In this document: positions 34,385 to 53,942 of the stretch, piece after piece | Layout of the letters: the number at the start of each line of letters is the position of its first letter | Numbering within the stretch: position 1 is the first letter of the stretch | Origin: Desulfobulbus propionicus | Lineage (GTDB): Bacteria; Desulfobacterota; Dissulfuribacteria; Dissulfuribacterales; DYOW01 | Length of the DNA stretch: 53,942 nt | Direction: 5' to 3' | NCBI GenBank assembly: GCA_020720325.1 | Contig: DYOW01000003.1 | Span: forward strand, 3,522 to 57,463 | Notes under the pieces: model-generated | What the model was told of the DNA's origin: nothing | What the model saw: the letters and a program-made list of their open reading frames with translations, nothing else | Database searches by the model: none | Position numbers and translations under genes: made by a program

Positions 34385-34915
34385 CTATTTAAACCAGATT
34401 TTACTAAAATCAAGGTCTAATCTGCATTTTATATCAAAAGAAAACACATCATCCCTGAAATCACCCTGTTTTATATATTTATCCTCTTTCAACTTATATA
34501 TCTTTGCCTTTTTAAGAAAAGGATAGCATAATACATAATATTTAGCGCCTTCCCTGCAATAAAGGTCAAATTTATATACTTCATCAGTCCGGGAATTTTT
34601 TTCCGAAACTATCTCAAAAATTATTTCAGGAGCATTGGTTATCTTATCCTGCAATTCATCACATACAACAATTACATCTGGTCTTACAAGAGTGTCATTA
34701 CTTATGAACCAGTCAACTTCGAACAGCACATAACAGGATTCTTCACAGGCATCAAGTTGTTCATCCAACAAACGAAATATTTTTCCGCTTATATATTGAT
34801 GCACAGGATGAGGTGAAGGAGACATGGCCACAGCGTGACCATCTATCAGCTCCCAGTCACCCTTCCATTGCTGCAAGTCTTCCAGTGTGTAATAGATATT
34901 TAAGGCTGTATTCAT
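34385..34915 (-). CDS. Uma2-family (DUF820, PD-(D/E)xK-like) putative endonuclease, copy 1
   Basis: 176-aa ORF. Motifs: WELIDG..AMSPSP..HQ; PDVIVVC; EIIFEIVSEKN. It aligns over its full length with the ORF at 38471-39013. Confidence 0.75.
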   Translation of the reverse strand: MNTALNIYYTLEDLQQWKGDWELIDGHAVAMSPSPHPVHQYISGKIFRLLDEQLDACEESCYVLFEVDWFISNDTLVRPDVIVVCDELQDKITNAPEIIFEIVSEKNSRTDEVYKFDLYCREGAKYYVLCYPFLKKAKIYKLKEDKYIKQGDFRDDVFSFDIKCRLDLDFSKIWFK

Positions 34916-38470: not shown

Positions 38471-39013
38471 ATGCAGGCAAATGATTTAAGATATCAGGAA
38501 AAATATACTTTCAGGGACTATGAAAAATGGGATGGAGACTGGGAACTCATTTATGGGAATGCCTTTGCCATGTCTCCTTCGCCGGTTTTTGAACATCAAT
38601 ATGTGTCTGGCGAGATTTTTAGACAACTTCATGAACAACTTGAAGCTTGCCCCAAATGTCAGGTTATTTATGAAATGGACTGGAATATAAGCGATGAAAC
38701 AGTGGTCGGACCTGATATTATGGTTGTATGCGGACACATTGGAGAAAGAGTGGTCAAGGCGCCGGTCATTATCTTTGAGGTAACCTCAAGACAGAATGCC
38801 AAAAGGGATGAGATACTTAAATTTGAATTATACCGCATTGAAGGTGTGGAGTTTTATGGCATTGTCTATCCTCAATTTAATAAGGTAAAACTCTATAAAC
38901 TTTTAGATGATAAATACAAAAAAATCAATGACTTTACCAACGAAATATTTGCTTTAGATATTAAAGATTGTAAAATTAAGATAGATTTCAGTAAAATATG
39001 GCTGAAAAAATAA
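38471..39013 (+). CDS. Uma2-family (DUF820) putative endonuclease, copy 2
   Basis: 180-aa ORF. Motifs: WELIYG..AMSPSP..HQ; PDIMVVC; VIIFEVTSRQN; the shared C-terminal DFSKIW. It is a paralog of 34385-34915. Confidence 0.75.
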   Translation: MQANDLRYQEKYTFRDYEKWDGDWELIYGNAFAMSPSPVFEHQYVSGEIFRQLHEQLEACPKCQVIYEMDWNISDETVVGPDIMVVCGHIGERVVKAPVIIFEVTSRQNAKRDEILKFELYRIEGVEFYGIVYPQFNKVKLYKLLDDKYKKINDFTNEIFALDIKDCKIKIDFSKIWLKK

Positions 39014-48281: not shown

Positions 48282-49262
48282 TCATAAAAAAACTCTATCT
48301 TTGGGAAGAATACACGACTCAGCCGTGCAAAGTGTTATTTCAACGGTGATATGAGACAAATTTTCAATGTCTTTCAATAATGCCTTGTAGTGTTCCGCTG
48401 GTTTGGGATAATGCGTTACAAGCGATATTATCACAGCGTAATCATTTGGTCCAACTTTCCATAAATGCAGGTCTGCAATGCGGTTGTCTGAATCTGACTC
48501 AATTATTTTTTTTATAAGACTTTCTTTAGTATTTTCTGTATTTTCATCCAAAAGTATGGGACTGGTTTCCATTAATAAATTTAGTGACCAGCGGGATATA
48601 ACCAGAGCGCCAACCAAACCAGCCACAGGGTCAAACCAATTCCAACCGTATATTTTTCCTGCAAAAAGCGCTGCTATTGCAAGAAAAGAGGTTAAAGCAT
48701 CAGCTACTACATGAAAATAGGCAGCCTTAAGATTATGGTCATTATGCGAATGAGCGTGATTTTCGTCTTCATCATGATGATTATGTGTATTTTGATGGTC
48801 ATGTTCATGATGACCCTTAAGGAGAAAAGCGCTCAAAATATTGATAAAAAGACCAAGCGCAGCAACAATGATGGCTTCATTAAATTTAATTTCTTCAGGA
48901 TTGAATATGCGCCCTATTGATTCCACGGACATTATCAAGGCAACCACAAATAATCCAACTGCGCTTGAAAATCCCCCAAGAACGCTTACCTTGCCTGTTC
49001 CAAAGGTAAATAAAGGATTATTTTCATGCTTTTTGGCATAATTATATGCAAATATCGTAATCATAAAGGCAGCTACATGTGTCGCCATGTGCCAGCCGTC
49101 AGCCAGAAGAGCCATAGAGCCAAAAGAGATGCCTGCAATAATCTCAACAATCATTGTGACAGCGGTTAAGCATAAAACCTGTTTGACGCGTGATTCACCT
49201 TTTTTATGAATCACTGCAAAATCATGGTTATGCCGCAATGTTTCAAGTGTTTGAACGTGCAT
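48282..49262 (-). CDS. Cation diffusion facilitator (CzcD/ZitB-like) with a His-rich cytoplasmic loop
   Basis: 326-aa ORF. TM2 has LLADGWHMATH, TM5 has FHVVADALTS, and the loop is HHEHDHQNTHNHHDEDENHAHSHNDH. Confidence 0.85.
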   Translation of the reverse strand: MHVQTLETLRHNHDFAVIHKKGESRVKQVLCLTAVTMIVEIIAGISFGSMALLADGWHMATHVAAFMITIFAYNYAKKHENNPLFTFGTGKVSVLGGFSSAVGLFVVALIMSVESIGRIFNPEEIKFNEAIIVAALGLFINILSAFLLKGHHEHDHQNTHNHHDEDENHAHSHNDHNLKAAYFHVVADALTSFLAIAALFAGKIYGWNWFDPVAGLVGALVISRWSLNLLMETSPILLDENTENTKESLIKKIIESDSDNRIADLHLWKVGPNDYAVIISLVTHYPKPAEHYKALLKDIENLSHITVEITLCTAESCILPKDRVFL

Positions 49263-49286: not shown

Positions 49287-49568
49287 TTAGTTCCCGCAAG
49301 CCCTGATGAGCGTCCATATTCCTATGGCTATAAATCCAAATCCGGCAAGATAATGCAGATGTTTTTCACAAACATATTGCGAAATAATGCCACCTGCAAT
49401 AACTCCAATTGCGGAAGTAAAAATTAAAGCCAGGAATGAAGCTAAAAATATCATAAATTTACTGATATTTTTGTCTGCGGCAAAAAGCATTGTGGCAAGC
49501 TGAGTCTTGTCTCCAAGCTCAGCAATAAAAACAGTTGCAAAAACAGCAAAAAAAAATTTGTTATCCAT
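49287..49568 (-). CDS. UPF0016 (GDT1/TMEM165/MneA-like) family membrane protein, single-domain form
   Basis: 93-aa ORF with three hydrophobic segments and the family signature ELGDKTQLAT in the first one. Confidence 0.75.
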   Translation of the reverse strand: MDNKFFFAVFATVFIAELGDKTQLATMLFAADKNISKFMIFLASFLALIFTSAIGVIAGGIISQYVCEKHLHYLAGFGFIAIGIWTLIRACGN

Positions 49569-49629: not shown

Positions 49630-49767
49630 TTAGGGCTCATTTGAACCGCATGAGCCGCAGCTCCCGCCGCAACCGCCGCAGCCCTTTATAAAGGTGCGGA
49701 AAAGAAAATAAATTGCCCCTCCAAGAATTAAACTCATTAATATGATATCAAAAATACCAATGTCCAT
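49630..49767 (-). CDS. 45-aa Cys-rich single-TM peptide (resembles the FeoB-associated Cys-rich membrane protein family)
   Basis: Not in the ORF track because it is under 60 aa. Hand translation gives MDIGIFDIILMSLILGGAIYFLFRTFIKGCGGCGGSCGSCGSNEP*. A strong SD, AAGGAGGAAAA, lies 7 nt upstream, and the ORF starts 26 nt after the ATPase stop. Confidence 0.7.
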   Translation of the reverse strand: MDIGIFDIILMSLILGGAIYFLFRTFIKGCGGCGGSCGSCGSNEP

Positions 49768-49793: not shown

Positions 49794-51905
49794 TTATTTT
49801 TTTAATGGCAGAAACGAATTTAAAAGTGTTGATAATGTAAGGATATTATGCAAAAAAGCAGCGGATAGAGGTCCTATAAATCCGGTTGAGGCAGAAAGCA
49901 ATATTAAGGAGTTTAACCCGGTTGAGATATTAAAGTTTTTGTTTATTATATCCATGGTGTCAACGGCTATTTCTTTGGCGGTGACAACAGGATATATTTC
50001 ATTTTTTATCAAGACAATATCCGCCACATCTTTAGCCATATCAGATGCGTTATAAACAGCGATGCTCACATCAGCGATGGAAAGCGCGGGAGCGTCATTT
50101 ATTCCGTCCCCGCAAAAAGCGATGATATTACATTCTTCTCTCTTTAATTCTTCTATTATTCTGGATTTATCTTCAGGAAGCAGTTTATAATAAACCTCAT
50201 CAAGCCCTATCTCTTCTGAAACAGCCATAGCCTTGTTTTTCTCATCGCCTGTAAGCATAATGACCTTGACAGCGCCCGATTTTTTCAATGCGATTATGGT
50301 ATCTTTGGCATCATGTCTTAATTTTTCCTTTAATGCTATAATGCCTATTGGCTCATAGTCCATAGTCATATAAAGAAGGGTTTTTCCTTCCAAAATAAAG
50401 GATTTTATTTTATTGTCATATTCATCAAAGGAAATATCCTCGTCTTCCTCAATAAAGTGATTGCTTCCCACCAGAACCTGTTTTTCATACACATTAGCCT
50501 TTAGCCCGTGTGCAATAATATATTCAACATCTGAATGTTTTATGTGCTTTAATTCCTTTTGCCTTGCATGTCTTACAATAGCCTGACCCACAGGATGATT
50601 ATAGTGTTCCTCAAGCGAGGCTGCCATAGCAAGAATATCATTTTCATTATAATCCTGATGAAAAGAGATTAAGTCCGTTATTTCCATGTGTTCTGATGTT
50701 AATGTGCCTGTCTTGTCGAAAACAAAAACATTGGCTCTGGAAAGCTTTTCAAATGCATTTCCGCCCTTTATGATTACTCCTTCAGTTGTCGCTTTATACA
50801 TTGAAGACTTAAAGGCAACAGATGGAGAAAGCTTTATGGCGCAGGCATAATCAACAAGTAAAACAGAAGCTGTTCTTTTTATGTCCCTTGTTAAAATATA
50901 GACTATAGAGGCAATAATCAATGTTATAAAAACACTCCTGTCTCCAAGTTTATCCGAATATCTCTGAATATTGCTTTTTGATGCAAGAGATTTTAATATA
51001 TATGAGGATATTCTTGCTGTTATGGTTTCTATTCCTATTTTTTCAGCCCTTATTTTAATAGCTCCTTCCCTTACTGTTGAGCCGGACAATGCATAGTCAT
51101 TTATTTCTTTTTTTATTGGTATTCCCTCTCCTGTAAGGGAAGACTCGTCAACAAGCGCTCCTCCTGAAATAACTGTTCCGTCTATTGGAATTATATTGCC
51201 TGCGTTGACAGACACTATATCATTAATATCTATATCATTTATATTTATCTCTATAAGATTATTATCTCTTTCAACCCAGATTTTTTCTATTGATGGATTT
51301 AATAATTTTGTTATTGCTTTATCCGCCTGATTAGTGGTGAAATATTCAAGATATTCTCCTGTTTCTATGAGAAGATATGTCAGGTTTGCCGCAAGATAAT
51401 TTTTTCTTAAAAGAGATATAAGCACAGCCAATGCGGATAAAACATCCGCTTTAATGCCTTCAAGAAATAATTTTTTTATTCCTCTTAGCAAAAGCGGCGA
51501 CACTGATATAAAGGTCAGGATATTTTTCAATGTCTGGGGCATTATAGGCAAAAACAATAATAAAACTATGCTTCTTGATATGTGAAAAAGGTCTTTTTGT
51601 TCAATTTCTCCTGGATATACAAAGCGCTCGGTATTTTCATCACTAAAATAATTTATAATTCCGTCAATTATTTTTTCCCTTGTTTCAATATTATTATCAT
51701 AATTAACAATAACGGAATTAGCCAGAAGATTTATTCTGGTTGCGGTCACGCCCTGTATTTTTTCAAAAAAAGCAATAATTTTTATGCTGCTTATTGAATT
51801 TAAATTTACATTAAAAGCCTTAAAGCGTATTCTTTTAGGGATTTCATGCGCTATATAAATATTGCTTTTTTTCAGTTTCAGGTTTTGATTTATTATGTTA
51901 TTCAT
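49794..51905 (-). CDS. P1B-type (heavy-metal) P-type ATPase with a non-canonical transmembrane metal site (YAC in place of CPC) and a Cys-less HMA-like N-terminus; FezB/P1B-6-like candidate
   Basis: 703-aa ORF. Motifs: TGE (SLTGEG), DKTGTLT, the HP dipeptide (YNHPVGQAIV) diagnostic of P1B pumps, MLTGD, GDGINDAPAL. The TM helix before DKTGT reads LLVDYACAIKLSPS, with no CPx/SPC/TPC. Confidence 0.8.
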   Translation of the reverse strand: MNNIINQNLKLKKSNIYIAHEIPKRIRFKAFNVNLNSISSIKIIAFFEKIQGVTATRINLLANSVIVNYDNNIETREKIIDGIINYFSDENTERFVYPGEIEQKDLFHISRSIVLLLFLPIMPQTLKNILTFISVSPLLLRGIKKLFLEGIKADVLSALAVLISLLRKNYLAANLTYLLIETGEYLEYFTTNQADKAITKLLNPSIEKIWVERDNNLIEININDIDINDIVSVNAGNIIPIDGTVISGGALVDESSLTGEGIPIKKEINDYALSGSTVREGAIKIRAEKIGIETITARISSYILKSLASKSNIQRYSDKLGDRSVFITLIIASIVYILTRDIKRTASVLLVDYACAIKLSPSVAFKSSMYKATTEGVIIKGGNAFEKLSRANVFVFDKTGTLTSEHMEITDLISFHQDYNENDILAMAASLEEHYNHPVGQAIVRHARQKELKHIKHSDVEYIIAHGLKANVYEKQVLVGSNHFIEEDEDISFDEYDNKIKSFILEGKTLLYMTMDYEPIGIIALKEKLRHDAKDTIIALKKSGAVKVIMLTGDEKNKAMAVSEEIGLDEVYYKLLPEDKSRIIEELKREECNIIAFCGDGINDAPALSIADVSIAVYNASDMAKDVADIVLIKNEIYPVVTAKEIAVDTMDIINKNFNISTGLNSLILLSASTGFIGPLSAAFLHNILTLSTLLNSFLPLKK

Positions 51906-52091: not shown

Positions 52092-52277
52092 TTAGTTTTT
52101 ATGCGCAAAAGGATTATAAAGATTATAATGCCACAGTGAAAATCCTATCATGGATACCCCTGCGATAGTATGGTATTCCCAGTTTGCCCTGCCCCTGCCC
52201 ATTCCTGTCCATACGAGATAGAGCATAGAAAGCGTCATGCCTGTTTTGACAATACTGTTTATTGTTTTTTTTTCCAT
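52092..52277 (-). CDS. 61-aa two-helix membrane protein with conserved-looking His residues (DUF4405-like?)
   Basis: It is the only ORF in a 620-nt gap. It has two hydrophobic helices (MTLSMLYLVWTGMG; HTIAGVSMIGFSLWH), no SD, and is co-directional with the cluster. Confidence 0.5.
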   Translation of the reverse strand: MEKKTINSIVKTGMTLSMLYLVWTGMGRGRANWEYHTIAGVSMIGFSLWHYNLYNPFAHKN

Positions 52278-52386
52278 ATTATTTTAATTAAGTTTATTTA
52301 TTTTAAGTTTTATTATTTATACATACAAAAGTAATGGCGCAAAGTATCATTTTAGAGAAGAATTCAGTTTACATATAACACACTTA

Positions 52387-52487
52387 TTTGTCTGAATCAG
52401 TATTTTCAGGATTAAAGGATAAACAGGATAAGCTGTTGATGGGCATCCTGTAAATCTTAAAATCCTGTGTATCCTGATTCAGACAAA
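52387..52487. repeat. 101-nt imperfect palindrome (MITE/REP-like) in the intergenic region inside the cluster
   Basis: Perfect 14-nt arms TTTGTCTGAATCAG (52387-52400) / CTGATTCAGACAAA (52474-52487). The inner arms are built of CAGGAT(T/A)-type units and are largely complementary. Confidence 0.8.
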
Positions 52488-52527
52488 AATTAACAGCTTT
52501 ACTAATAAAGATGTTAATTAATAATAG

Positions 52528-52872
52528 TTATACTGATTCCTTCTCTTCCTTTTTAAGATTTATTTCCTGTTTTACATCCTCAAATTTTTCTTTAATCTCT
52601 TCAATACCTGAAACCACCCCTGTCCAGGACTGAGCCACTGCCTTTAAGATAAATTTCTGGACATTTTCATTGCTGAGAACAAGAGTCAATCCCGCTCCGA
52701 TTAATAATCCCTGCCAGAGATATCCTGAGCCAAAATCAAATCCCAAAATTCTGGGATAATTCTGCTGTGGGTATTGATAAACAGGATAATTTGACTGATA
52801 TAAATTTGATGCAGGATAATAGCCCTGATTTGCGTAATCAGGAAAGACATTAGGCTGGCGGTGACTGCTCAT
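52528..52872 (-). CDS. Small membrane protein: Q/N/P/Y-rich N-terminus, YtxH-like GxxxG helix, charged coiled C-terminus
   Basis: 114-aa ORF. The N-terminal region is QPNVFPDYANQGYYPASNLYQSNYPVYQYPQQNYP, followed by FDFGSGYLWQGLLIGAGLTLVLSNENVQK. The start overlaps the upstream stop (TAATG). It is paralogous in the helix region to 53304-53942. Confidence 0.7.
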   Translation of the reverse strand: MSSHRQPNVFPDYANQGYYPASNLYQSNYPVYQYPQQNYPRILGFDFGSGYLWQGLLIGAGLTLVLSNENVQKFILKAVAQSWTGVVSGIEEIKEKFEDVKQEINLKKEEKESV

Positions 52873-53273
52873 TAGGATTTTTCTCCTTGTTCTTCAGTAT
52901 TTTGAGGCGCTGCCTTTGGTTTTCCAATATATGACATAAGATAACCAACGCCAGTTGCTGTCGCCGCCATAAATAAAAACGGAACTACTCCCCTTGCGCC
53001 TGTCATCTGGGCAACTGATGTTCCCGCAAATGTGGCGACCCCTGCCATTCCACCTTTGACAAGGCTGTCAATGCCTGCCTGTGTCCATGTCATTTGATTT
53101 GACTGGACTTTATGGATATTATTTCCCATGCTGAGTGTGGCGCCAACAATAACGCCGAATAAACCTGTGCTTAATGCCAGTCTGCTGTTAAAATAATTTG
53201 CGGGATAGTAATTATAAGATTGTTGCGGATACTGATAGTTTTGGTTTGGAAAATTTGAATGAGACATAGACAT
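52872..53273 (-). CDS. Small two-helix membrane protein with Q/N/Y-rich N-terminus and a MamC-like helix-loop-helix core
   Basis: 133-aa ORF with AAGGAGAAAC 6 nt upstream. The N-terminal region is NFPNQNYQYPQQSYNYYPANYFN. TM1 is GLFGVIVGATLSMG, the loop is NNIHKVQSNQMTWTQAGIDSLVKGG, and TM2 is the Gly/Ala-rich MAGVATFAGTS...VVPFLFMAATATGVGYLMSYIG. Confidence 0.7.
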   Translation of the reverse strand: MSMSHSNFPNQNYQYPQQSYNYYPANYFNSRLALSTGLFGVIVGATLSMGNNIHKVQSNQMTWTQAGIDSLVKGGMAGVATFAGTSVAQMTGARGVVPFLFMAATATGVGYLMSYIGKPKAAPQNTEEQGEKS

Positions 53274-53303
53274 ATAGTTTCTCCTTATTTTTTATATTTT
53301 AAA

Positions 53304-53942
53304 TTATTTAATTGGTTGTCCTGATGAGAATATATTTGCAAGTCCTTCTTTAACTGATTTATTTGTCAGCAAAAAAGCAATCAAAGAGCCTGCAATCAAT
53401 CCTTTCCAGAATTGTTCATGGTTAAAATCCACCGAAAAAACTGAAAAAATCTCATCTGGCTGTGCCTGACCCGCCATTATTCTGTTAACTGTTTCCATTG
53501 CCATGCCAAACCTGTTTTCCATGTGTTTTGGATGGTGATGGGGTGAATGACTGTGGCTTTGCATTGATGAATGGCTTTGCTGCTGAGGATTGTAGTAATT
53601 AGCCTGATTAGGATCAGCATATTGAGCATGTGGATTGACAAATGGATTTTGAGTCTGATATGGATTTGAAAAAGGGGGATAACCATAAGGATTCATAAAA
53701 TTTGGCGGGACAAATCCTGGAGGTCCATAAGGCTGGGCTTGAAAATTATGGGGAAGAGTCTGCTGAAAAGGAGCGCCATACATCATCTGAGCCTGCATAA
53801 GTTCCTGTCCAAACATCATCTCAGAGCTAAAAGGATTCTGCTGTGGATGCAGCTGGGGCTGGAAATGAGGATTTGTGGGTTGCGGTTGCGGCTGAAAATT
53901 AGGCTGGGGATGTGGCTGGGGATGTGGCTGGGGATGTGGCTG
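53304..53942 (-). CDS. Membrane protein with a long P/Q/H/N/Y-rich low-complexity region and a C-terminal YtxH-like GxxxG helix (5' end outside the window)
   Basis: The frame stays open to the window edge, upstream of the tracked Met at 53819. Hand translation of 53942-53820 gives QPHPQPHPQPHPQPNFQPQPQPTNPHFQPQLHPQQNPFSSE. There is a His cluster HSSMQSHSHSPHHHPKH, and the C-terminus is FWKGLIAGSLIAFLLTNKSVKEGL. Confidence 0.7.
   Translation of the reverse strand, partial: QPHPQPHPQPHPQPNFQPQPQPTNPHFQPQLHPQQNPFSSEMMFGQELMQAQMMYGAPFQQTLPHNFQAQPYGPPGFVPPNFMNPYGYPPFSNPYQTQNPFVNPHAQYADPNQANYYNPQQQSHSSMQSHSHSPHHHPKHMENRFGMAMETVNRIMAGQAQPDEIFSVFSVDFNHEQFWKGLIAGSLIAFLLTNKSVKEGLANIFSSGQPIK
53902..53942. 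repeat. 12-nt tandem repeat GGCTGGGGATGT (at least 3.4 copies, truncated by the window end), coding for (QPHP)n on the minus strand
   Basis: Identical units at 53902-53913, 53914-53925 and 53926-53937, plus a partial unit at 53938-53942. Confidence 0.9.

Follow-up and report, generated by a model that had tools for sequence, protein, structure and literature searches.

A divergent ferrosome (fez) gene cluster in a Desulfobulbus propionicus assembly, with GxxxG and MamC-like small membrane proteins bearing low-complexity tails

The ferrosome is a lipid-bounded organelle, recognised only recently, in which anaerobes, the pathogen C. difficile included, store iron, and, to our knowledge, no roles have been assigned to the small Fez proteins, the FezB pump apart. 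Here we describe three tandem genes at one end of a 53,942-nucleotide stretch of DNA from a Desulfobulbus propionicus assembly (GCA_020720325.1, contig DYOW01000003.1, positions 3,522 to 57,463 of the forward strand; the whole stretch is hereafter called the window), which encode predicted small membrane proteins with long low-complexity N-termini and lie beside a P-type ATPase gene. The three co-oriented open reading frames (ORFs), all on the minus strand of the window, are g1 (52528-52872; 114 residues), g2 (52872-53273; 133 residues) and g3 (53304-53942; the C-terminal 212 codons of a gene whose 5' end lies beyond the window and whose full product has 310-316 residues). We find that these genes form part of a new and divergent fez (ferrosome) cluster, of a known kind whose protein families have already been catalogued.

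In both S. putrefaciens and R. palustris, ferrosomes require a six-gene fez operon with members of the protein groups considered here; transfer of the S. putrefaciens operon suffices for ferrosomes in E. coli, and Fez proteins are recovered together with ferrosomes on purification (Grant et al., bioRxiv 10.1101/2020.01.10.902569; hereafter the ferrosome preprint). Functionally, FezB is the presumed Fe(II) pump, FezE and FezG are GxxxG proteins and FezF is a protein with two transmembrane (TM) helices (bioRxiv 10.1101/2020.01.10.902569). The small proteins are also catalogued by group, with Sputcn32_3194, 3195 and 3196 of S. putrefaciens in Groups 2-1, 4-2 and 2-5, RPA2334 in the GxxxG Group 2 and RPA2335 in Group 4, and Q366DRAFT_02521, 02522 and 02523 in Groups 2-3 (GxxxG), 4-6 and 2-1 (GxxxG), respectively (bioRxiv 10.1101/2020.01.10.902569). 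To map the Fez names onto these groups, we infer that Sputcn32_3195 is FezF, by elimination, and that Sputcn32_3194 is FezG, from gene order. The ferrosome iron of C. difficile is held as a ferrous-phosphate mineral (PMC13307979).

The genes of the window match this catalogue one by one. A full HMMER (phmmer) scan of 1.84 billion cluster representatives with g1 returned 303 matches at E ≤ 1e-3, and a genome scan with the g1-family alignment, using one genome per GTDB species, returned 80 loci (L008-L087), so homologues do exist elsewhere; their absence would have counted against the original prediction, made by a model from the letters of the window. Among these loci, that of Desulfobacter vibrioformis DSM 8776 (L034) carries ORFs of exactly 327, 132 and 124 residues in the same order, which are Q366DRAFT_02521, 02522 and 02523. 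With phmmer, g1 matched Q366DRAFT_02523 (L034:7881-8255) at E = 4.9e-19, the D. indianensis copy (L055) at E = 2.1e-16 and the R. palustris copy (L069) at E = 7.7e-13, and g2 matched Q366DRAFT_02522 (L034:7314-7712) at E = 2.4e-13, with jackhmmer also reaching the R. palustris copy. A single-sequence phmmer search with g3 did not reach Q366DRAFT_02521; an iterated profile of its C-terminal part matched that protein (L034:6309-7292) at E = 1.2e-21, and also catches Group 2-1 proteins, the helix being common to both. By these similarities, g3 is assigned to fez Group 2-3 (the QFWKGAVVGAAAAV type, upstream of the Group 4 gene), g2 to Group 4 (FezF-type, in the MamC family PF26373) and g1 to Group 2-1 (FezG-type, upstream of the ATPase gene). 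Gene order and adjacency to a FezB P1B-6 ATPase are the same as in described fez clusters, and the GxxxG context of the listed members, (Q/D)FWKG..(V/I)G, has its counterparts here in QFWKGLIAGS and YLWQGLLIGA. Thus, we consider it highly probable that the trio is the small-membrane-protein module of a fez cluster that, together with a neighbouring, probably DUF4405-like protein of 61 residues and FezB, would build a lipid-bounded iron-phosphate granule under anoxic conditions. As the ATPase is the ferrosome pump FezB, the suggestion in the original prediction that these are organelle proteins of the adjacent transporter cluster is essentially implied by the homology to fez clusters.

The ATPase gene (49794-51905, minus strand; 703 residues) matches E1-E2_ATPase, Hydrolase and HMA_2 in Pfam and ATPase-IB_hvy in NCBIfam. 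DYSCAIK, HNxST and HELPRRIRFKSL are tabulated as FezB signatures by Grant et al. (bioRxiv 10.1101/2020.01.10.902569), and we defined FezB by DYSCA(I/L)K in TM4, HNxxT in TM6 and an N-terminal HxxPxRxRxK. The window ATPase fits this definition with two conservative deviations, since it carries the R-rich HEIPKRIRFKAF at its N-terminus, DYACAIK in TM4 and HNILT in TM6. Compared with 145 collected ATPase ORFs, its best matches were all FezB-type (500-600 bits); the ATPases of L006 and L034 that are not FezB, of FezH-type or other kinds, scored ~230-290 bits.

Evolutionarily, the arrangement recurs well beyond this lineage. In ~80 genomes from several phyla the order is a long GxxxG gene, a MamC-like gene, a short GxxxG gene with an acidic helix, and FezB, with the 80 loci falling in the Thermodesulfobacteriota, Chromatiaceae, Thiobacillaceae, Competibacteraceae, Campylobacterota, Deferribacterales and Rhodopseudomonas. 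Whether homologues always neighbour the atypical ATPase had been proposed as a check. In 61 of the 72 loci with enough sequence, a P-type ATPase gene begins within 1.5 kb downstream, and in most of the others one lies upstream. The MamC-like gene is directly upstream of the g1 homologue in 56/75 loci by phmmer, and is held by 81 of the 88 sequences searched (the window and all 87 fetched loci) by jackhmmer; a second GxxxG gene lies further upstream in 47/63. The two GxxxG positions differ in kind: the pump-adjacent gene, which lies downstream of the MamC-like one, encodes the acidic helix (GxEExKE) in 69 of 75 cases, whereas the upstream gene is long (median 273 residues) and encodes it in 1 of 64. 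Relative to the described clusters, the lineage of the window is very divergent and of low GC (~35%), none of the 80 genome matches exceeds 44% identity, and no separate R-rich small protein of the FezC or FezD type is visible in the window. Close relatives L006 and L007 (g2 identity 95% and 68%) retain the trio. In both, another P-type ATPase with HMA_2, the second of the locus, immediately precedes g3 (L006:299-2476 and L007:1-474), FezH-like with SCPCA in TM4 and HIIHTGG in TM6, and L002 has HicAB and DUF4258 genes at the place of this second ATPase.

Structurally, g1 and g3 share the module DF....(F/L)W(K/Q)GL..G......L(T/S)N..V (BLASTP E = 8e-6), in agreement with the shared C-terminal module that had been noticed in two of the three proteins, and its hydrophobic helix holds the GxxxG motif as G55-LLI-G59 in g1 and G-LIA-G in g3. 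In g1, a 40-residue Q/N/P/Y tail precedes the GxxxG helix YLWQGLLIGAGLTLVLS (51-67), a break at N68 and an amphipathic acidic helix (69-113). The longer g3 begins with a CxCG motif that lies outside the window, continues with a ~230-residue disordered Q/P/N/Y/H tract and the conserved HHHPKHMENRFG motif with a helix, and ends with DFNHEQFWKGLIAGSLIAFLLTNKSVKE, the GxxxG helix, and a 20-residue tail, without the acidic helix. Among 150 relatives of g1, G55, E92 and E95 are invariant and G59, N68, Q72, K94, D99 and E103 nearly so, and the family pattern is a variable P/Q/Y/G/A-rich tail, then F(L/F)G.(D/N)F....FWKGALLGAGV.LLLTNE.VQK, then GVEE(I/L)KE(K/R)F.D(A/V).AE. An AlphaFold2 (AF2) model of g1 from 150 sequences has a disordered tail (residues 1-40; predicted local distance difference test, pLDDT, 56-58), a tiny beta-hairpin (41-46) and helices 51-67 and 69-113 at pLDDT >90 with the break at N68, consistent with the membrane-anchored proteins with disordered N-termini that had been predicted. 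Foldseek found nothing in the PDB at E ≤ 0.001 for this model, a helix-kink-helix being an uninformative fold; Pfam and NCBIfam gave nothing significant for g1, g3 or the 61-residue protein, and a word-indexed search with the g3 C-terminal module gave zero candidates.

The resemblance to a YtxH-type membrane helix that had been drawn for this module holds in part, and leads to an alternative in which the trio would be generic YtxH/DUF5132-type stress membrane proteins with fast-evolving tails, next to an ATPase by chance and without any organelle role. As in the module here, a long charged helix comes after a hydrophobic, Gly-rich one in both YtxH (PF12732) and DUF5132 (PF17195) proteins; sub-threshold co-linear YtxH matches, which span the full module (positions 7-67 of the 71 in the profile), occur in 34 of the 150 relatives (best E = 9.6e-5) and DUF5132 matches in 26, which leaves room for remote homology, and the tails do evolve by repeat slippage. 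However, all five YtxH matches that we inspected scored 14-17 bits, far below the gathering cut-off of 37.5, g1 and g3 themselves have no YtxH match at E ≤ 1, YtxH proteins lack both the P/Q/Y tails and the FezB context, and across phyla these proteins keep FezB-type ATPases and MamC-like genes as their neighbours. We therefore regard chance adjacency of generic proteins as highly improbable.

The middle protein, g2, belongs elsewhere. Because its family profile is unrelated to that of g1 and g3 (hhalign probability of 1% between the g2 and g1 families), the trio comprises two families and not the three paralogues originally proposed. After a 29-residue N/Q/Y/P-rich tail, g2 has three predicted helices (30-57, 63-91 and 97-116). 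It matches the NCBIfam MamC model NF038051 at E = 2.2e-7 and 31.1 bits, with an equivalog cut-off of 100 bits; the MamC model matches 61 of 68 members of the g2 family, with a best E of 4.7e-22, and the Pfam family PF26373 (MamC) is precomputed for g2 and for 72/72 database homologues, which are annotated solely as hypothetical proteins. A PDB sequence search with g2 returned a chance hit alone (E = 1.8), the word-indexed search found two close relatives and nothing else, and the AF2 model of g2 is of low confidence (pLDDT 57). MamC is predicted to have two TM helices around a 21-residue helical loop that is lumenal and acts via acidic residues (PMC6206293). In the alignment of g2 33-94 to positions 9-70 of the MamC (Mms13) model, a Gly/Ala-rich helix, a ~20-residue loop or helix and a second Gly/Ala-rich helix correspond, and the conserved D69 of g2 falls in the inter-helix segment, where MamC has magnetite-contacting acidic residues. 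A link between g2-type and g1-type proteins comes from P0117, a 252-residue database representative in which a MamC-like domain (18-73, E = 8.5e-8) is naturally fused, via a P/Q/Y linker, to a GxxxG/acidic-helix module; judged by its sequence, this fusion is Rosetta-stone evidence that the two types would work together.

Could the locus then be related to magnetosomes, with g2 as MamC and magnetite-associated neighbours in a magnetotactic bacterium? The NCBIfam and precomputed Pfam matches of g2 would fit, as would weak MamB and MamM matches of the CDF transporter gene downstream of the pump. That transporter, however, is DmeF-type (406 bits vs 45 for MamB), g2 scores far under the 100-bit equivalog cut-off, no other mam genes were seen in the annotated part of the window, and g2 homologues adjoin FezB in ~80 genomes, mostly of lineages that are not known to be magnetotactic. 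Further differences from MamC are the third hydrophobic helix of g2, its N/Q/Y/P-rich N-terminal tail, the fez rather than mam context and the mineral itself, which is iron phosphate in ferrosomes and magnetite in magnetosomes. A magnetosome locus, with g2 as MamC proper, was rejected on the scores and the fez context, and is in our view almost certainly the wrong reading.

The low-complexity N-termini were the starting observation of the original prediction, and the three ORFs and all the tracts it quoted are present. Against a background of 17.5% Q/N/P/Y/H in the 40 other genes of the window, these residues make up 65% of g1 residues 1-40 (binomial P = 4e-11), 69% of g2 residues 1-29 (P = 1.5e-9) and 65% of the first 139 in-window residues of g3 (P = 9e-35), and the best 25-residue spans of the trio reach 0.76, 0.80 and 0.92, vs a maximum of 0.60 in any other gene of the window. 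P/Q/Y-rich tails with almost no charge are a trait of all three protein families and not a quirk of this genome. Tails in the g1 family (150 representatives) have a median length of 70 residues, are 55% P/Q/N/Y/G/H and hold 2.6 K+R and 5.1 D+E per 100 residues; the 30 residues preceding helix 1 in the g2 family have a median Q/N/P/Y/H content of 43%, and g3-type proteins have 200-400 residues of tail-like sequence. The dominant residues appear to vary by locus, being N, Q and Y in this ~35% GC window rather than the G, A and P that are more frequent in Desulfovibrio-type loci; P, Q and Y are enriched at all of them. In composition and predicted disorder the tails fit prion-like or phase-separating domains, with self-assembly putative.

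Short motifs are embedded in the g3-type tracts, with CxC(G) in 16 of 64, His clusters in 23 of 64, and H-H-P-K-H-(D/M)-E-(H/N)-(R/K)-(F/Y)-G, followed by a helix and DF...QFWKG, in 12 of 64. The His cluster to which attention had been drawn as a possible metal-binding tract is there in g3, as HSHSPHHHPKH; its end is not low complexity, because it forms part of a conserved HHPKH(D/M)E(H/N)R(F/Y)G motif in g3-type relatives. In Desulfobulbaceae-type upstream GxxxG proteins, a repeated motif, PPGYA(V/I)DPATGQ(I/M)V(F/Y), replaces CxC.

Mechanistically, we posit that the GxxxG helices would anchor and oligomerise these proteins in the organelle membrane and may help to bend or delimit it, that the acidic stripe of g1 (E92, E95, D99 and E103) could, in a PacL-like manner, be a docking surface for the HMA_2 domains, basic and R-rich, at the N-termini of the Fez ATPases, that the inter-helix loop of g2 would face the lumen, as predicted for the MamC loop, and that the tails, with the embedded CxC and His motifs of g3, could serve as flexible multivalent scaffolds or Fe(II)-handling arms. 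PacL (DUF1490, from M. tuberculosis) is the closest characterised functional analogue, and the resemblance is functional only. PacL proteins are small and combine a single TM helix and a GxxG motif with a charged helix, a region of disorder and, optionally, a His-rich motif. Their genes lie upstream of those for P1B ATPases, of which the P1B-6-like CtpC is one, and they stabilise and cluster the pump by binding to its N-terminal domain (PMC13460109).

By this analogy the trio could instead be PacL-like scaffolds or chaperones of a metal-efflux platform (an 'effluxosome'), in which the P1B ATPase of the cytoplasmic membrane would owe its stability and clustering to the small GxxxG proteins and the His/Cys motifs would buffer or deliver metal for export, alongside the CDF and GDT1 transporters. 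The likeness extends to size, Gly motif, disorder, gene position upstream of a P1B ATPase and the proposed stabilisation of the pump; the cluster does encode a DmeF-like CDF transporter and a GDT1 half-transporter, and g3 does have its His cluster. Against this, the ATPase has FezB-specific motifs and groups with FezB-type pumps, and the small proteins match, gene for gene, fez groups whose operons make ferrosomes. PacL also differs in that no sequence homology to the g1/g3 family was detected (the recurrent Pfam families of the 150 relatives do not include DUF1490), that its TM helix is N-terminal, with EA repeats and the cytoplasmic part after it, whereas here the tail precedes the helix, and that it serves plasma-membrane efflux and not an organelle. 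An efflux platform in place of a ferrosome is improbable on this evidence, and the two readings are mechanistically compatible rather than mutually exclusive.

Several points weigh against the ferrosome assignment or parts of it. The HMA_2 match of the ATPase is 29.4 bits, with a cut-off of 30, and, relative to described FezB pumps, TM4 has Ala for Ser (DYACAIK) and TM6 reads HNILT, with Leu at the fourth position of the HN motif, vs HNx(S/T)T. The downstream GDT1 and DmeF-like CDF genes are compatible with a plain metal-efflux role. The GxxxG hydrophobic helix may be too weak for a membrane span, because it is short and only moderately hydrophobic (best 18-residue Kyte-Doolittle mean 1.36), with the next helix strongly amphipathic. 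Docking of the acidic helix onto R-rich domains is argued from charge complementarity and the PacL analogy only. We found no experiments on individual FezE, FezF or FezG proteins in the ferrosome texts examined, and, while Fe/P-rich membrane-bounded granules, a product of anoxic, iron-replete conditions, have been shown in other species, the evidence for the locus of this organism consists of its genes. Topology cues also conflict: flanking K+R counts (0.8 on the N side vs 2.65 on the C side) favour an N-out/C-in orientation with a cytoplasmic C-terminal helix, whereas three other cues, namely a g3 N-region of 280 residues that lacks a signal peptide, the fused architecture of P0117 and the likeness to MamC, favour cytoplasmic tails. 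A cytoplasmic position of the tails is the more likely, and a monotopic or hairpin anchor would reconcile both sets of cues.

Taken alone the locus is ordinary, one more fez cluster from an uncultured low-GC anaerobe; together with the ~80 syntenic loci it delimits a defined, conserved three-gene module. To that module it offers a Gly-zipper helix, an invariant acidic stripe restricted to the pump-adjacent gene, a MamC-like ferrosome-magnetosome link and compositionally conserved disordered tails with Cys/His motifs, all of which bear on the ways in which bacteria construct a mineral compartment within a membrane and fill it. The proline/glutamine/tyrosine-rich tails and the MamC-like middle protein are little-discussed features of fez clusters. 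Three observations go beyond the ferrosome preprint, namely the family-wide disordered tails with embedded motifs, the link to the MamC domain and the rule for the position of the acidic helix, none of which is mentioned in the preprint or its supplement (the journal version was not compared). Extending these further, the tails on three ferrosome proteins, two GxxxG types and one MamC-like, might form a multivalent condensate-like layer on one face of the ferrosome membrane that would concentrate Fe(II) through its CxC and His motifs, recruit Fez ATPases through the acidic helix and drive vesicle formation or iron-phosphate nucleation, and the shared MamC-like domain might trace a part of the membrane proteome of both ferrosomes and magnetosomes back to one iron organelle ancestral to the two; as a whole we hold this scenario to be speculative and rather unlikely.

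Between the trio and the pump lies a gene for a 61-residue protein (52092-52277, minus strand) with two hydrophobic helices and conserved H36 and H50, 14 residues apart. Its homologues are present in 40 of the 88 sequences searched, and 30 of the 80 genome loci have one in the corresponding place, flanked by the GxxxG gene and FezB; DUF4405 was matched weakly in 7 of 10 homologues (best E = 0.0054, below the cut-off), and the copy in the window has no Pfam or NCBIfam match. From its sequence and position the protein is probably a DUF4405-like fez component, for which haem or metal ligation by H36 and H50 is conceivable. On the other side of the pump, also on the minus strand, follow a Cys-rich FeoB_associated-like peptide (49630-49767; 45 residues, with the C-terminal end GCGGCGGSCGSCGS), a GDT1/UPF0016 half-transporter (49287-49568; 93 residues) and the DmeF-like CDF transporter (48282-49262; DmeF 406 bits). 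These three are additions relative to described fez clusters, and their combination is not described for fez clusters in the ferrosome preprint.

The genes of the trio are tightly packed. The g2 stop and g1 start overlap as TAATG, and the gap of 30 nucleotides between g3 and g2 carries an AAGGAG Shine-Dalgarno sequence. The true start of g2 may be its third codon, because the L006 homologue begins MSHSNF. The ATG at 53819, the start of a listed 171-residue ORF, is an internal Met of g3, whose frame continues uninterrupted to the window end. Five contigs with the same genes were identified in public data by an exact match to g2 (the sample and assembly accessions recorded are JGI 3300000234, GCA_020718765.1 and GCA_974336885.1), two of them with a complete g3 of 310 and 316 residues whose N-terminus is MEQKIQNPVQAEAACDCGSH (MEQKIQNP...CDCGS). 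At the edge of the window, a perfect 12-nucleotide tandem repeat, GGCTGGGGATGT (53902-53942; at least 3.4 copies), encodes the (QPHP)n of g3, which is also seen in L002:1830-2060 and L003:940-1150. The copy number of (QPHP)n differs between assemblies, and the ends of the window and of three public contigs fall inside it, which suggests strain-level repeat heterogeneity that breaks assemblies. A second repeat difference between assemblies, of the six residues QQFTQP, occurs near the N-terminus of g3.

The spacer of ~250 nucleotides between g1 and the gene for the 61-residue protein (52278-52527, minus strand) is structured, with a fold energy of -55.8 kcal/mol (z = -5.8), and contains a small AT-rich hairpin, a U run and then a ~100-nucleotide hairpin with arms GUCUGAAUCAG and CUGAUUCAGAC. 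A metal riboswitch was rejected for this spacer, because Rfam scans in and around the cluster, spacer included, gave no family at gathering or E-value thresholds. The sequence is not conserved in L006, the 95% g2 relative, which has different hairpins at the equivalent place; a simple terminator scan did not call the spacer, and promoter and terminator scans were uninformative. The spacer may be an attenuator or an mRNA-stability element between the structural and pump genes. Unrelated to the trio, two Uma2-family (putative restriction endonuclease-like) genes lie elsewhere in the window on opposite strands, ~3.5 kb apart (34385-34915 and 38471-39013), flanking an M18 aminopeptidase gene, a ThyX gene and a prepilin-type gene.

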